34,514 nt of DNA from Candidatus Aenigmatarchaeota archaeon (lineage in GTDB: Archaea > Aenigmatarchaeota > Aenigmatarchaeia > GW2011-AR5 > JACRAC01): positions 182,500 to 217,013 of the forward strand of contig JAWCMQ010000001.1 of assembly GCA_039091255.1 (NCBI GenBank), given 5' to 3'. How positions within the stretch are numbered: the first letter of the stretch is position 1; each line of letters opens with the position of its first letter. The translations under genes and the position numbers were made by a program. Below, piece after piece: positions 349 to 28,197 of this stretch. The notes beneath the pieces were generated by a model. The model was not told the DNA's origin, searched no databases, and was given only the letters and a program-made list of their open reading frames with translations.

Positions 349-504
349 GCGCCTGTAGTCTAAAGGCCCTTTCCGAGGGAAAGCCCTGGGAAAGGAACGG
401 AGCTATCAGCTGCTAGCCGGAAAATGGTAGGACATCAAGCCTTGGAACACTGAGCGTGTAAGCCTTCCAAGCTGATTATCCGGGTTCGAATCCCGGCGGG
501 CGCA
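349..504 (+). tRNA. tRNA-Gly(UCC) with two introns (364-424 at position 15/16; 438-461 at 29/30)
   Basis: Acceptor GCGCCTG/CGGGCGC+A, D-stem GTCT/GGAC, anticodon stem TCAGC/GCTGA with loop CT-TCC-AA and T-arm CCGGG-TTCGAAT-CCCGG all form once the two inserts are removed. Strict BHB at the second insert. TTTATG box at 313-318. Confidence 0.9.
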
Positions 505-13962: not shown

Positions 13963-14952
13963 CTATACGCCCTGTTTTGATGCAAGCGAAATGTACTTTA
14001 TGTCAATGGGCGTTTCCTTGCGCTGAGGCCTAACGGCTTTGCGCAGCACGACGAGCCTCTTCACAGGGCCAGGGACAGAACCGTCCAACAATAGCCACGT
14101 TTTCGGGATAACGCCGTATCCTATGAAGCCACCCATAGGATTGATTTTGCTTGCATCCTCACCGATAGCGAGCAGCCGTTTGTTGAATTCTGTGCGCGTA
14201 AAAAAGCCGCACTGACCTGCCAACGGAACGCGCCAGTCTAGCTTACGAGGAACGGTGGAACCGACCGAACCTGCATGCCTGTGCATCTGCTTGTCTTTCC
14301 TGCCTTGTATACGTATGCCAAAACGCTTGACAGGACCTGTATAGCCGTGGCCTTTTGTTACGGCTGTAGCATCAAGCCATTCGCCCGCTTTGAGCGCATC
14401 TACAGCAGCAAGCTCTTTCCCCAACGCCGATTTTGCATACTCGAGCTTCTTAGCGACATCTGTGCCGCAGATTCCGATTTCAAGCACGTCCGGCTTCTTT
14501 TTGTTCATGCCCGACTTTTTTGGCTGTGTCGCGACTATCAACCGAACGTCCGCAATATCTTCTGGCTTAGGTTCGGACTTCTTTTTTGCGGCTACAGTCT
14601 TGCGGTTAAGCTCAAGGTCCTTTGGAATGGCATCAAACCATACTTCGCCGGCAGGCGCAAGCCCACTAAGAGCTTGCTTATAGAAGCGATATCCGAGAAC
14701 GAACAAGGGAGGAGAATCAAGAACGGTTACAGGACGAAAAATGAGCTTGTTATGCGTTGGCGAGTTGGGCCGCGTATCAATCATATGAATGTGCGTCATG
14801 CCCGCCTTCCATGCGGCAAACCCCATTGGCTTTACTTCTGCGCGAACTCGGCCGCCTGCATGCGACCAATTCACGCAGGGATAGATTCGGCTAGCCCGCT
14901 TTCGCGGCCAGAACTGCAGCGATCCACGCCTCGAGCTTCGGTATCGTGCCAT
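13963..14952 (-). CDS. rpl3: 50S ribosomal protein uL3
   Basis: RRGSLQFWPRKRA, KAGMTH, TKGHGYTGPVKRFG, GSVPGPVKR. Start reset to 14952. Confidence 0.97.
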   Translation of the reverse strand: MARYRSSRRGSLQFWPRKRASRIYPCVNWSHAGGRVRAEVKPMGFAAWKAGMTHIHMIDTRPNSPTHNKLIFRPVTVLDSPPLFVLGYRFYKQALSGLAPAGEVWFDAIPKDLELNRKTVAAKKKSEPKPEDIADVRLIVATQPKKSGMNKKKPDVLEIGICGTDVAKKLEYAKSALGKELAAVDALKAGEWLDATAVTKGHGYTGPVKRFGIRIQGRKDKQMHRHAGSVGSTVPRKLDWRVPLAGQCGFFTRTEFNKRLLAIGEDASKINPMGGFIGYGVIPKTWLLLDGSVPGPVKRLVVLRKAVRPQRKETPIDIKYISLASKQGV

Positions 14953-15220
14953 CTTGACTTCGCCTGCAACTGTGCCGTATCGGCAAAGAGCAAAGACCAG
15001 CGCTCCTCTTGCTCTCCACGTCCTCAGCACGCTCATTCATTTCGCTTTACATATGATGCGTACATTTTACACGCTAGCTTCACTTATCAGAACACGTAGC
15101 CTATGCGCACAAGCGGCAAGCTCGCGCGGGTCTGAGAGTGTGCCTATATCCTATCGTGAAGTATTTAAGCATTGGGTCGGAGGCGTGCAGCCCCGTTGGT
15201 GCATTCAGGTGAGACGCTAA

Positions 15221-15228
15221 TTTTATAA
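15221..15228 (+). promoter_or_regulatory. TATA box upstream of the structured non-coding element
   Basis: TTTTATAA about 25 nt before the first hairpin at 15253; no credible plus-strand ORF follows. Orientation is not certain. Confidence 0.55.
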
Positions 15229-15252
15229 GCACGGATTGTTGAAGATAGTTAG

Positions 15253-15430
15253 CAGCAATTAAACGCACGACTGCGCTTGCTGTACATCTGCACGTTCGAA
15301 TCCGGGCATCTCAAGAGTTTCCTGCTTCGGCAGGACTGAAACCGCCTTCGGGTGGTTTCCTTTGCTTGAGCCTAGAGGATGAGATGAGCCGTGCAGATAT
15401 AAGCTTAGCGACCAGCGCGAAACTGGGCGA
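15253..15430 (+). ncRNA. Putative unknown structured RNA containing a strict BHB-flanked 66-nt insert (15310-15375)
   Basis: Outer stem ATCTGCACG/CGTGCAGAT; BHB ATCC-GGGC-[ATC]-TCAAG / CTTGA-GCCT-[AGA]-GGAT; two cUUCGg hairpins inside; upstream TATA box. Confidence 0.7.
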
Positions 15431-15444
15431 ATGCGGCAACGGTT

Positions 15445-17037
15445 CTATTCAGAAACCTTCACGCGCAATTTCTTTCCAATTCTATAGTTTGCTTTCTCAC
15501 CAACCCTTGTTCCGAAAAGACAAGCGCGCGCATGCTCAGCAATCTTGTCGCCTTCCTTATCCGACTCAATTGCGACATGATCAATCGCGTTCTCGATCGC
15601 TTTCACGGTGCTAGCGACACTTTTCTCTACGCTTGTGATAGCTCCCCTTAAGCTGTTTTTTGCGGCAAATGCATCATGCTTGATGAGCCCTGCAGCATTG
15701 TGAGCCTTCAACAATGTGCCCAAAAGTCCGCTCCGCACCATTTCGCTGAATACATGGCTCGGCGCCACGCGCTCGCGCTTTTCAATCGCTTCCATTAGGA
15801 GCAGACCCAGCATGGCTGCGCCTATCATCCTCAAAATCCCCGAGACCAAGAAGACCGCCCTTATCTCGGTTATGCCAGCTATTCCGAAGAGAGGCGACAC
15901 AACAAACGCGCTTGCAATCAATCCGCCTATAACCGGTCCTGTTATACCTGCAACACCGAACACAACGTTTGTCAATGCCGAATAAACCGGCCGTTCTGCT
16001 ACAGGCGAAATCTCAAGCATGTAATTGAAATACGAGAGGTTGTAGCCAGCCCATACAGCACCGCTGAAAGCTTCTGCCACAACGAGAAGGTAAAGATATT
16101 CTGGAGGCACAGGTATCCATAGCAGCGGAACGAGCACTATCCAAAATGCCGAGATTATCAGAATAACGCGGTGGCCATAGCGGTCTGAAAAGCGGCCCCA
16201 TGCGCGTTGGACAGAGATGCCTGCAACGCCACTCGCGACTGCAAGTATCGCTATCCATATGTATTCCGCTCGGAGCGCATTCAGCAGATGGACTGTAAAA
16301 AATGGTGAAGCCACCATTACAGCGAATTCAAAAAAACCCAACGCAAGGAGGAAGCGCCTAAGCCTCCCGTCGCGTAATGCATTGCGCATTGCAGAAATCG
16401 TATGCGCCCTGTGTTCGAGCTGGAGTGGCGGCTCCGGCACCTGCCATAGCAAGGCGGAAGAGGTCAGTCCTGCCAGCATGCCGACTCCGAATATCACGAT
16501 AAAGCCAAACATGTTGCCTCTTCCAAAAAAGTCGAGCACCCATCCTGCAATAAGCTCTGCACCCAAGCCAGCAACGGTGGTGTAGGCAAGCCTTCGGCTA
16601 AAATAGCGCCCACGCACATAATCAGGCACTATGTCGCCTGTGATGGACGCCCATGCCGGCGAAGAAAATGCGCTGATGATGGAAGCAAGCGTTACGAAGA
16701 CCATCAGCCCTGCCAATGACCAGCCAGTGAAAGCGATAGGCAGCATAAGTATGCCGAGCCACATCAGCCTCGAGAGCGTCGTCGCCCCAACAAGTATCGA
16801 TTTCCTTTTCCGCATGTAGTGCTGCGTCAGGATAGCAGAAGGCACTAGCGCAATCGTCCAAAAAACGTTGGGTATAGAGTTAAGGAGGCCGACATAGAAA
16901 GCGTTTGCGCCAAGCGCCAGCGCGAAGGCGACGAGGAATACAGACGTCATGGCGTACATAATGCTTGCAAATATGCCTTCGCGCACAAGCAATTGCATGC
17001 CGAGGCGCCGCTTGCCCTCATGCCATATTTGCTCCAT
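15445..17037 (-). CDS. MFS transporter with soluble C-terminal tail
   Basis: About 12 hydrophobic segments; WASITGDIVPDYVRGRYFSRR and WGRFSDRYGHR MFS loop motifs. Start reset to 17037 to avoid overlap with the HIT gene. Confidence 0.9.
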   Translation of the reverse strand: MEQIWHEGKRRLGMQLLVREGIFASIMYAMTSVFLVAFALALGANAFYVGLLNSIPNVFWTIALVPSAILTQHYMRKRKSILVGATTLSRLMWLGILMLPIAFTGWSLAGLMVFVTLASIISAFSSPAWASITGDIVPDYVRGRYFSRRLAYTTVAGLGAELIAGWVLDFFGRGNMFGFIVIFGVGMLAGLTSSALLWQVPEPPLQLEHRAHTISAMRNALRDGRLRRFLLALGFFEFAVMVASPFFTVHLLNALRAEYIWIAILAVASGVAGISVQRAWGRFSDRYGHRVILIISAFWIVLVPLLWIPVPPEYLYLLVVAEAFSGAVWAGYNLSYFNYMLEISPVAERPVYSALTNVVFGVAGITGPVIGGLIASAFVVSPLFGIAGITEIRAVFLVSGILRMIGAAMLGLLLMEAIEKRERVAPSHVFSEMVRSGLLGTLLKAHNAAGLIKHDAFAAKNSLRGAITSVEKSVASTVKAIENAIDHVAIESDKEGDKIAEHARACLFGTRVGEKANYRIGKKLRVKVSE

Positions 17038-17060
17038 GATTAGAAGAAAGAGAAAGGTGA

Positions 17061-17070
17061 TTAATATATA
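17061..17070. promoter_or_regulatory. Shared bidirectional TATA element
   Basis: TTAATATATA lies about 24 nt from both divergent starts (17037 minus, 17095 plus). Confidence 0.6.
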
Positions 17071-17094
17071 TTTCTCTTCATCAATCGAATACGT

Positions 17095-17556
17095 ATGCCT
17101 CAAAATTGCCCATTCTGCAACCCGGATGTTATAAAGCGCCATGCATACGGCGAAACGAACCTATTCCGCTTTTTCTACAATCATAAGCCGATACTGCCGG
17201 GGCACTCTCTCATCGTTCCAAAGCGGCATGTGGAGACTTTCCTTGACCTGACAGATGCCGAACTGAGCGAGCTTGCGTTATCGGCAAAGCACCTTGCTGC
17301 TGCTCTCATGGCAGCGTACGGCTGCGACGGCATTGACATGCTGATACAAAATGGCCGGACAGCAGGCGCTTCCGTCGACCACATCCACTGGCACATCGTG
17401 CCGCGCAAAGCAGGCGACATCGATGGCGACCCAAGCATGTGGATAGCAAAAATAATAGAATCGGAACATGCGAGGCAGACGATTCCCCAAGCGGAGATTC
17501 AGAACAACATCAAGAAAATCCAGATGCACATCGGCAATTTTTCGGCAGGACTTTAA
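17095..17556 (+). CDS. HIT-family nucleotide hydrolase
   Basis: CPFC, PGHSLIVPKRH, QNGRTAGASVDHIHWHIVPR histidine triad. Confidence 0.95.
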   Translation: MPQNCPFCNPDVIKRHAYGETNLFRFFYNHKPILPGHSLIVPKRHVETFLDLTDAELSELALSAKHLAAALMAAYGCDGIDMLIQNGRTAGASVDHIHWHIVPRKAGDIDGDPSMWIAKIIESEHARQTIPQAEIQNNIKKIQMHIGNFSAGL

Positions 17557-26028: not shown

Positions 26029-28197
26029 ATGCCTGTCACAAAGGTCCGCAAGCGTGACGGACGGCTCGAGGATTTTAGCATAGCTAAAATCGCCACGGCA
26101 ATACACAAAGCGCTTATGGCAACAAAGACACCGGATGCGCAAAGTGCGCAAAAGCTCGCTGAAGAGGTTACTGCCATTCTTAACAAGCGCTTCGAGCGTG
26201 TCATACCATCCGTAGAAAACATCCAAGACATTGTTGAAGAAACGCTGATGCGGCACCATCTCACGAAAGCCGCAAAAGCGTACATACTCTATCGCCAACG
26301 CCGAGCAGAAGAGCGAGAAGTCAAGAGGGCAATAGGGGTGCCAGACGAGCTGAAGCTTGGCATAAATGCTATCGCCGTTCTTGAGCGGCGCTACCTGCTC
26401 AAGAACGAGGAGGGTAAGGTTATCGAAACACCTGCGCAGCTTTTCCGCCGTGTCGCCAGGGCAATCGCCCAGGTTGATAAGCATTATGGAGAAGATGCGA
26501 AAGCGTCGGAAGAAGCGTTCTACGCGATGATGGCAAGCCGCGAATTCCTTCCAAATACACCCACGCTTATGAACGCCGGTACCCCGCTGGGGCAGCTGAG
26601 CGCATGCTTCGTATTGCCTATAGAGGATTCACTGAAATCGATATTCAAGGCTGTTGCCGACATGGCCACAATACAGCAATCGGGTGGAGGGACGGGCTTC
26701 GCCTTCAGCCGATTGAGGCCTAAGGGTGACATCGTGCGCAGCACAAAAGGCGTAGCTTCAGGCCCAATATCATTTATGCGCATATTCGATGTTGCAACAG
26801 ACACCATCAAGCAGGGTGGCAAACGCCGCGGCGCAAATATGGGAATATTGCGCATTGACCATCCTGACATCGAAGAGTTCATAACAGCCAAAGCACGCGA
26901 AGGCTTTCTTGCAAACTTCAATCTTTCCGTTGCGGTCACCGACAAATTCATGCGTGCCGTGGCAAAAGACCAGGAATATGAGCTCATCAATCCGCGCACC
27001 GGCCATGCTGTCCGCAAGGTGCGCGCTCGCGACATCTGGGACCTTATCATAACATATGCCTGGCGGACAGGCGATCCCGGCATAATCTTCATCGACGAAG
27101 TTAATCGATCGAATCCAACGGCGCATATCGGGAAGATAGAGTCAACAAACCCCTGCGGCGAGCAGCCGCTTCATCCCTATGAATCGTGCAACCTTGGCTC
27201 CATAAACCTTGCCAAGATGCTGCGTAAAATAACTCCGCGTGAAGGGAGTAACAATGCGCCTGTGGGATGCGAGCAACCAGCCGAATACGAGATTTGGTGG
27301 GAGAAATTGCGCTCAACCGTGCGCAATGCGGTTCACTTTCTGGATAACGTAATAGATGCGAACAAATATCCGCTACCGGAAATCGAGCGCATTACAAAGG
27401 CGAATCGGCGGATAGGCTTGGGTGTTATGGGATTTGCGGATATGCTTCTCCTGCTCGGTGTGCCTTACGACAGCACTGCCGCGCTAAAGCTTGGCGAGAA
27501 GGTAATGAAATTCATAAACGAGGAGGCTCACAAAGCCTCGGCTACCATCGCTGAGAAGCGCGGCAGCTTTCCGAACTTCAAAGGCTCGCTGTGGGAAAAA
27601 AGAGGCTGGAAAGCGATGCGCAATGCGACATGTACGACTATAGCGCCGACAGGTACCATCAGCATCATCGCCGGCTGCTCGAGCGGAATCGAACCGCTGT
27701 TTGCTGTAGCATTTGTCCGAAACGTCCTTGAGGGTACTCGCCTTTTCGAGATCAACCCTATCTTCGAGCAGATTGCAAAAGCGCGAGGCTTCTATTCTCC
27801 TGAGCTCATGCAAGAAATTGCTCGCACCGGCAGCGTCCGAAAGGTTGCAAAAGTTCCGGAAGACCTGCGCCAGCTGTTCGTGACCGCGCTCGACATCGAA
27901 CCCGAGTGGCACGTGCGCATGCAGGCGGCGTTCCAGCGGCACACAGATAACGCGGTTTCGAAGACAATAAACTTCAGGCATGATGCGACAGCCGAAGAAG
28001 TTCGCAAGGCATATGAGCTCGCGCACAGGCTAAAATGCAAAGGCATAACCGTCTACCGCTATGGCTCCAAGCGCGAGCAGGTTCTTTACATCGGCGAGCT
28101 CGAGCGAAAAGAGCGTCCCGAAGCTCCGCCTTTCGTAACGGCAGAATCTGAGTTTGCTGGCGGATGCCCCACCCCGCTCTGTCCCGCACCGGCATAA
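26029..28197 (+). CDS. nrdJ: Adenosylcobalamin-dependent (class II) ribonucleotide reductase with ATP cone
   Basis: VRKRDG ATP cone, PNTPTLMNAG, LSACF, QGGKRRGANM, TNPCGEQPL, RRIGLGVMG, TIAPTGT, C-terminal CxxxxC; TATA at 25999. Confidence 0.95.
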   Translation: MPVTKVRKRDGRLEDFSIAKIATAIHKALMATKTPDAQSAQKLAEEVTAILNKRFERVIPSVENIQDIVEETLMRHHLTKAAKAYILYRQRRAEEREVKRAIGVPDELKLGINAIAVLERRYLLKNEEGKVIETPAQLFRRVARAIAQVDKHYGEDAKASEEAFYAMMASREFLPNTPTLMNAGTPLGQLSACFVLPIEDSLKSIFKAVADMATIQQSGGGTGFAFSRLRPKGDIVRSTKGVASGPISFMRIFDVATDTIKQGGKRRGANMGILRIDHPDIEEFITAKAREGFLANFNLSVAVTDKFMRAVAKDQEYELINPRTGHAVRKVRARDIWDLIITYAWRTGDPGIIFIDEVNRSNPTAHIGKIESTNPCGEQPLHPYESCNLGSINLAKMLRKITPREGSNNAPVGCEQPAEYEIWWEKLRSTVRNAVHFLDNVIDANKYPLPEIERITKANRRIGLGVMGFADMLLLLGVPYDSTAALKLGEKVMKFINEEAHKASATIAEKRGSFPNFKGSLWEKRGWKAMRNATCTTIAPTGTISIIAGCSSGIEPLFAVAFVRNVLEGTRLFEINPIFEQIAKARGFYSPELMQEIARTGSVRKVAKVPEDLRQLFVTALDIEPEWHVRMQAAFQRHTDNAVSKTINFRHDATAEEVRKAYELAHRLKCKGITVYRYGSKREQVLYIGELERKERPEAPPFVTAESEFAGGCPTPLCPAPA

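Follow-up and report, generated by a model that had tools for sequence, protein, structure and literature searches.

Here we show that the window, by which we mean the whole stretch of 34,514 nucleotides of archaeal DNA that was analysed, carries a free-standing small-RNA gene (15222-15430, plus strand) that is oriented divergently from rpl3, and that this element is a member of a conserved, uncatalogued small-RNA family in the order to which the archaeon belongs. The best explanation for its architecture, to which we give a probability of about 0.62, is that the RNA would be cut out of its precursor by EndA at a BHB motif and circularised by RtcB as the 66-nt product of a processing stem.

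The window corresponds to G000:C1:182500-217013, and the host genome (G000; 0.7 Mb, 83% complete) is that of a DPANN archaeon of the Aenigmatarchaeota, whose L3 protein, encoded in the window, shares 52-63% identity with Candidatus Aenigmatarchaeota records. Window DNA was found in four sequencing runs, all of them DNA runs of hot springs metagenome, and the contigs from these runs are identical to the window and show no strain variants. The RNA gene sits in a gap of 408 nt between an MFS transporter gene (15445-17142, minus strand) and rpl3 (13963-15036, minus strand), which is followed downstream by the genes for L4 and then L2. The window copy of the RNA gene and the rpl3 operon probably share a bidirectional promoter region. 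The AT-rich block AAGTATTTAAGCATTG, when read on the minus strand, is probably a TATA-like box belonging to the promoter of the rpl3 operon, as judged from its position and from the archaeal TATA consensus. The RNA gene has a TATA box of its own, TTTATAAG, and its transcription would start at about 15250-15255. The coordinates of the features are given in Table 1.

Table 1. Features of the RNA gene and its promoter region, in window coordinates
Feature	Position	Strand	Remark
AT-rich block AAGTATTTAAGCATTG	15159..15174	-	identical in window and L035 (intergenic alignment)
TATA box TTTATAAG of RNA gene	15222..15229	+	kept in L035
5' leader hairpin	15253..15281	+	sequence not conserved; other hairpins there in L035
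Outer (processing) stem, 5' strand	15286..15294	+	9 bp with 15390-15398
BHB outer helix h, 5' strand ATCC	15300..15303	+	pairs with 15377-80; covariation at 4/4 pairs across family members
BHB central 4-bp helix H, 5' strand GGGC	15304..15307	+	pairs with 15370-73
5' bulge ATC	15308..15310	+	predicted cut after 15309; ATC or AAC in most family members
Predicted excised RNA, 66 nt, three-way junction	15310..15375	+	~95% identical in L035
Helix h', TCAAG/CTTGA	15311-15/15365-69	+	5 bp, arm of predicted excised RNA
Hairpin 1, cUUCGg loop	15320-35	+	inside predicted excised RNA
Hairpin 2, cUUCGg loop	15338-59	+	inside predicted excised RNA
BHB central helix H, 3' strand GCCT	15370..15373	+	one G.U pair in helix
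3' bulge AGA	15374..15376	+	predicted cut after 15375; AGT in L035 and G008, TGA in G057
BHB outer helix h, 3' strand GGAT	15377..15380	+	partner of 15300..15303
Outer (processing) stem, 3' strand	15390..15398	+	present in sequence and MFE fold; covariation
3' trailer hairpin CCAG...CTGG	15412..15426	+	not conserved

All the helices, bulges and hairpins that an earlier note on this DNA had listed, as well as the 9-bp stem and the TATA box, are present in the sequence, and the minimum free energy (MFE) fold of 15253-15430 holds all the listed helices (-65.9 kcal/mol, z -2.73; 2 of 200 shuffled sequences folded as well). The BHB of the window consists of two 3-nt bulges on opposite strands that are separated by exactly 4 bp, each bulge lying 3' of its strand of H, and it is flanked by an h of 4 bp and an h' of 5 bp. 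The plus strand is the strand of the RNA gene, because both tetraloops read cUUCGg on this strand, because the bulges lie 3' of H on both strands of the helix only when the plus strand is read, and because the G.U pairs become A.C mismatches on the other strand. In the related locus L035, three one-sided substitutions, located in h and in the two hairpins, each produce a U.G pair, and in 7 of the 10 aligned sequences the pair in column 21-96 is G.U.

It should be noted that BHB geometry by itself is no evidence of a real element. A scan of the genome for strict BHBs (h of at least 4 bp, 4 bp between two 3-nt bulges and h' of at least 4 bp, with 10-300 nt enclosed) gave 3610 matches, compared with counts of 3060, 3160 and 3138 for three sequences simulated with a first-order Markov model; by proportion, the genome count corresponds to some 150 strict BHBs per window-sized stretch. 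Survival of the BHB in the MFE fold is not decisive either, being observed for 6 of the 3610 real and 3 of 3168 simulated instances. The "exact BHB geometry" pointed out in the earlier note is present but carries no weight by itself; the window element is significant because of its conservation and covariation in relatives. The other five survivors in the genome include a genuine T-loop intron of a tRNA (C1:130723-130777) and a paralog of the window element (C7:17775-17914). A further strict BHB that survives local MFE folding lies in the window itself, at 27758-27815 on the minus strand (C1:210257-210314; 51 nt enclosed, h 5, h' 5); since about three such survivors are expected per genome, it may be due to chance.

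The closest relative of the window element was found beside rpl3. A covariance model built from the window sequence alone (R1) matched one of 23 metagenome rpl3 loci, L035, with 74.6 bits (E 1e-16). The L3 protein encoded at L035 is 76% identical to that of the window, and the element lies upstream of rpl3 on the same side and strand as in the window, on the strand opposite to rpl3. The inner 66 nt and the BHB core are nearly identical in the two loci and the flanks have diverged; the outer stem of L035 has another sequence and is still paired, with 4 of its 9 pairs being compensatory relative to the window. Both TATA-like blocks of the intergenic region are kept, the BHB is retained in the MFE fold (z -4.37), and an internal loop of the window stem is absent. 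This conservation bears out the view, put forward in the earlier note, of a free-standing non-tRNA RNA gene on the plus strand that is divergent from rpl3 and has a TATA box of its own.

Beyond L035, a search with R1 gave no match in 27 GTDB rpl3 loci or in 69 other genomes of the order. Locus L036, whose L3 protein is equally close, gave no R1 match and has another gene upstream of rpl3. Sequence searches with the 251-nt region returned only the region itself from 41 relatives and the own genome, and nhmmer found nothing in 27 rpl3 loci. When 59 loci (58 rpl3 loci and the own locus, L034) were scanned for strict BHBs present in the MFE fold, only the own element and that of L035 were recovered from 1105 candidates; therefore, the other lineages scanned have no syntenic element beside rpl3.

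Members of the family do exist at other positions. A second model made from the window and L035 (R2), run with the filters off, scored a gene in genome G008 at 23.8 bits (E 6e-4), and a third model (R3) was made from all three. Among 70 genomes of the order, R3 matched four, namely the own genome, G008, G002 and G057, so that the window-type copy was detected in only 4/70; R2 and R3 each gave no match in 150 other genomes forming an evenly drawn sample of the phylum. A pattern of the shared core, run over 371 genomes of the phylum, found the own genome and G008 only and nothing outside the order, and a backwards control gave 0 matches. A core string of 25 nt had no exact counterpart in viral contigs, and the flanks of the rRNA, 5S, SRP and RNase P genes contained no BHB with the family core; a BHB-like match at the 5S gene corresponds to helix I and looks like chance.

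In the smallest gene of the family, that of G008, a TATA box is followed by a stem of 7 bp, the BHB, an RNA of 57 nt, the returning stem strand and a T-rich tail, and the enclosed RNA forms two hairpins with sequences quite unlike those of the window (MFE z -5.76). The copy in G002, a genome of the same family as that of the window, also has cUUCGg loops, shows two U.U mismatches in h' and adjoins a Met-tRNA synthetase gene; the G057 copy adjoins a radical-SAM gene. The paralog in the own genome (C7:17775-17914) is a further copy that the earlier note had not reported. It is intergenic and has the core GGGC-AAC-TCAGA ... TCTGA-GCCT-AGA, as in the window, with an 11-bp outer stem, an enclosed RNA of 133 nt and a TATA box about 25 nt upstream; as a BLAST query it returned only itself and one 25-nt match. 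The strict BHB, with its bulges, 4-bp spacing and handedness, is conserved between the window, L035, G008 and this paralog. Across the family, a TATA-like box typically lies 25-33 nt 5' of the outer stem, T-runs follow 3' of it, and the two-hairpin architecture recurs with other hairpin sequences in G008, G002, G057 and the members described below.

Most copies, a point that the earlier note had missed, lie not beside rpl3 but beside another gene. The paralog region (C7:17724-17959; about 1225-1460 of locus L070) and the G008 RNA are each located directly downstream of a gene for an ATP-cone/Mrr_cat/AF1548-like_C protein. The two neighbouring proteins are orthologs (53% identity, E 2e-86), and both match PDB 1Y88, "hypothetical protein AF1548". 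Neither NCBIfam nor the protein atlas gave a functional name for the AF1548-like protein, and we found no description of the function of AF1548 in the literature. The protein is encoded in 48 of the 70 genomes of the order. Across 30 AF1548-like loci taken order-wide (L078-L107), two of which are incomplete downstream, the RNA lies directly downstream of the gene and on the same strand in 20 (19 by RNA profile, plus the own copy on C7). The BHBs of these 20 RNAs vary: 11 have an h and an h' of at least 3 bp each, five have an h of only 2 bp, and four are broken, the disrupted helix in these four being the one next to the 3' bulge, with H, the 5' bulge and h' persisting. The window, G002 and G057 copies are not beside an AF1548-like gene. 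This ATP-cone/PD-(D/E)xK nuclease family (PDB 1Y88), which is uncharacterised, is flagged as a possible partner of the RNA. The 645-nt intergenic region on C7 contains further hairpins, and also a weak C/D-box-like match (SNORD27 model, E 0.64, L070:1489-1532).

A search of 34 sources with R3 gave 10 matches, and in the alignment of these 10 sequences 28 of 37 pairs are compensatory. Paired cells amount to 91.8%, compared with 65.4% after shuffling (none of 500 shuffles reached the observed value) and 28-47% with slid partners. All nine pairs of the outer stem are compensatory, and helix H is paired in 100% of its cells, two of its pairs being invariant and one compensatory. Because these alignments were fitted to the structure of the model they lean towards that structure; the controls with slid partners and the independent MFE folds agree with it. 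Across the family, the outer stem ranges from 6 to 16 bp and is free in sequence and length. Selection maintains the core of the BHB together with the two-hairpin junction that it encloses, and the flanks behave as a clamp whose sequence and length are arbitrary. The letters with the highest conservation, G-R-G-C-A-W, are on the 5' side, in what would be a discarded exon, and they are as conserved as the product side. This exceeds what BHB geometry needs, and therefore leaves room for another reader of the motif. The loops of the enclosed RNA, on the other hand, are 3-6 nt long and all vary across the family, which makes base-pairing to targets unlikely.

None of the known RNA classes that we considered accounts for the element. 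Rfam gave no match at the gathering threshold, one noise match around the locus at E<=10, and no match on five family loci, and ARAGORN found no tRNA in the window. The earlier note had seen no signature of tRNA, 5S, SRP or RNase P RNA, and this is upheld. SRP RNA, 5S, RNase P and rRNA fragments had no match at the locus at E<=10, and the genome carries its SRP RNA (123.3 bits), 5S, 16S and 23S genes and a weak RNase P candidate elsewhere. A detached rRNA helix was rejected, as R2 and R3 match no rRNA gene in the genomes searched. C/D box sRNAs have a C box (RUGAUGA) and a D box (CUGA) that form K-turns, and H/ACA sRNAs have a pseudouridylation pocket and an ACA after the lower stem; the element has no conserved boxes (by eye), no ACA after the stem and no match to an Rfam snoRNA, and a K-turn or H/ACA pocket in the window stem was discarded because the loop is absent in L035. 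A hammerhead core does not fit either, the junction strands being 4, 2 and 5 nt long, not 7, 3 and 1, and a CUA "anticodon" at the ligation loop is not kept in G057 or G002.

Several observations on the stable RNA genes of these genomes were made along the way. Fourteen Rfam tRNA matches in G000 score above the cut-off, the majority with lengths of 110-141 nt, and nearly all the tRNA genes are interrupted. Window positions 439-504 on the plus strand (C1:182938-183003) give a sub-threshold Rfam tRNA match (24 bits, E 0.004) with a good T-arm and 3' acceptor strand and a poor 5' part, and probably represent the 3' part of a further tRNA gene that is disrupted by an intron. An identical 59-nt tRNA 3' portion with the same score is found at C7:34263-34321 and C6:66488-66546, and may be a contig-end repeat or a shared tRNA 3' half. 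The 23S gene (C4:149446-153121) measures 3676 nt against 2987 for the model, and the 16S gene (C4:153858-156009) 2152 against 1478; inserts or introns amounting to several hundred bases are therefore probable in each gene. Several other Aenigmatarchaeota have an uninterrupted tRNA-Ile(GAT) gene on either strand 0.7-1.3 kb upstream of rpl3 (loci L007, L009, L027, L029, L031, L056 and L059), and the window has none there.

EndA cuts BHB motifs at canonical positions in the two bulges. Both EndA (PF01974, 95.3 bits) and RtcB (PF01139, 573.8 bits) are encoded in G000, which makes the formation of a circle the most economical mechanism; the EndA gene lies in the region C6:65183-65461 and the RtcB gene in the region C7:9146-10453. 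According to the model that we favour, the transcript driven by the TATA box would fold into a long hairpin in which the lower leader/trailer stem clamps the BHB, and EndA would then cut both 3-nt bulges at the positions given in Table 1. RtcB would join the ends to give a covalently closed three-way-junction RNA of 66 nt with two UUCG-capped hairpins and a 5-bp arm, leaving the leader and the trailer as by-products. The conserved ends of the piece would form a third arm, in the window CTTGAG / CTCAAG with a 5-nt loop, which would exist in the circular form only. The circle predicted in the earlier note stands in so far as the 66-nt piece follows from canonical EndA cutting; cleavage, circularisation and the role of the excised piece as the functional product are predictions from structure and conservation. 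In those members of the family in which the BHB is relaxed or broken, cleavage would need an EndA of broad specificity, or might not occur.

Other explanations of the conserved structure have to be weighed against EndA/RtcB processing. One of them, which we consider unlikely, is that the structured RNA is not cut by EndA, and that the BHB is a conserved internal-loop motif for binding a protein such as the AF1548-like protein, the whole hairpin being functional. The conservation of core letters beyond geometry, including the exon-side GRGC-AW, together with the relaxed or broken 3' side of the BHB in 9 of the 20 AF1548-adjacent members, in which H, the 5' bulge and h' persist, keeps alive the reading that a protein other than EndA, possibly the neighbouring nuclease, recognises the motif; the same-strand position of the RNA directly downstream of the nuclease gene at 20/30 loci and the frequency of BHB geometry by chance point in the same direction. 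However, a strict and correctly handed BHB is present in the window, L035, G008, the C7 paralog and 11 of the 20 adjacent members, the outer stem of 6-16 bp resembles a clamp, and the window, G002 and G057 copies lie away from the nuclease gene; the EndA of G000, moreover, must already handle non-canonical sites. It is less probable still that the 66-nt piece is a discarded intron and that the ligated hairpin, a stem with the 7-nt loop GGGCATA, is the functional small host RNA. Splicing would indeed give a stem with the conserved 7-nt loop G-R-G-C-A-W-N in every member, and the exon-side letters are conserved, but neither the sequence nor the length of the stem is conserved, L035 lacks the internal loop found in the window stem, and the product of the G008 gene would be a bare 7-bp hairpin. 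BHB introns are characterised by conserved, functional exons and a less constrained insert, and the opposite is found here, since the enclosed two-hairpin junction is kept, with 28/37 pairs compensatory, and is about 95% identical in L035, where the flanks have diverged. The meaningful spliced host RNA that had been proposed earlier is therefore not sustained, given an outer stem of varied length in which 9/9 pairs are compensatory and a flank in G008 that amounts to a 7-bp stem.

About as improbable is a selfish origin, in which the element would be an orphan BHB intron or a mobile module without cellular function. G000 is rich in BHB introns, which nearly all its tRNAs carry, its rRNA genes exceed the lengths of their models by about 670-690 nt, and the window-type copy occurs in different contexts in the own genome and L035, in G002 and in G057. 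Against this, there is a single copy per locus type with its own promoter, synteny is kept even though the neighbour protein is only about 40-59% identical across families, and compensatory evolution maintains the helices; in addition, the element has no sequence match elsewhere in the genome or to viral contigs and is, by eye, unlike the GCCCTTTT-type tRNA introns of G000. The possibility that the locus is a piece of a disrupted tRNA, i.e., of a split, permuted or multi-intron gene missed by standard finders, can be given hardly any weight. The sequence at 15293-15302, GTTCGAATCC, is similar to a T-loop, finders miss T-loop and multi-intron tRNAs of G000, and in 6/25 and 2/23 other loci a tRNA-Ile(GAT) gene is located 0.7-1.3 kb upstream of rpl3, with one unclear call of a 4-base anticodon in each set. 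Yet neither a tRNA model nor ARAGORN matches at the locus, the T-loop-like string is GTTGAGATCC in L035 with the equivalent of C56 lost, the bases flanking GTTCGAATCC form no T-stem, and the enclosed loops of 3-6 nt are nowhere conserved. A relic of tRNA-Ile was likewise rejected, as a tRNA with the anticodon GAT appears elsewhere, at C1:86105, by our own reading (ARAGORN calls it Leu(CAA)).

Returning to EndA/RtcB processing as the preferred reading, our best guess is that the RNA is a stable protein-binding or structural RNA with a shape-specific protein partner. A more specific version of this view, which we put forward tentatively and which is doubtful in its full form, is that these are dedicated circular-RNA genes: EndA and RtcB would produce a three-armed circle of about 52-66 nt whose third arm has a conserved C-N-N-N-G loop, the circle would act as partner or regulator of the AF1548-like nuclease whose gene lies directly upstream in most genomes, and the window paralog would have become wired to a ribosomal-protein promoter. 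The archaeal splicing endonuclease is known to act on tRNAs, on precursors of rRNA, on one or two mRNAs and on the permuted SRP RNA of Thermoproteus, and a conserved stand-alone gene family framed by a cut-and-join motif would widen this list. If the view of dedicated circles is true, this would be the first RNA family in archaea whose members are made for no other purpose than to be a BHB circle, and a natural example of a gene built for a small circular RNA, in a DPANN archaeon, a group whose RNA biology is almost unexplored. Such RNAs escape annotation that is based on Rfam.

Our literature search found no description of the RNA family; supplementary lists of circular RNAs, which were outside that search, could bear on this point. 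According to PMC7714728, BHB sites occur in tRNAs and rRNAs, in one mRNA (Watanabe et al. 2002), in the 5' UTR of HVO_1309 and in a 16S-like precursor, and seven circles in Haloferax are flanked by a BHB. Intergenic circles are reported in PMC12558985, where the omega-RNA circles are without a BHB. The closest precedent is described in PMC4731332: circularisation at a BHB restores a functional SRP RNA in Thermoproteus.

The permuted SRP RNA gene of Thermoproteus resembles the present element in being a free-standing gene for a non-tRNA, non-rRNA product that relies on BHB cleavage and ligation (PMC4731332). It differs in that a known molecule is encoded there in permuted order, whereas no known RNA was matched here and a normal SRP RNA gene lies elsewhere in the genome. 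The BHB introns of archaeal tRNAs and rRNAs, and the intron in the 5' UTR of Haloferax HVO_1309, share with it the motif, the predicted enzymes and the circular excised piece (PMC7714728). In those cases, however, the host exons are conserved and functional, whereas in the present family the stem flanks vary, and conservation is found in the enclosed RNA and in the core of the BHB. The processing stems of archaeal pre-rRNA likewise form a leader-trailer helix with a BHB around the RNA that matters, the flanks being discarded and a circle being expected from EndA and the ligase (PMC7714728, PMC10351888 and a 2026 bioRxiv preprint). In contrast to these stems, the family is neither located in an rRNA operon nor made of rRNA, has its own TATA box, and would yield products of 52-66 nt (133 nt in the paralog). 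The element nevertheless resembles a processing stem that encloses its product more than it does an intron within a host RNA, because its outer stem varies freely, its core and the enclosed junction are kept, and the exons of the G008 gene amount to only a 7-bp stem.
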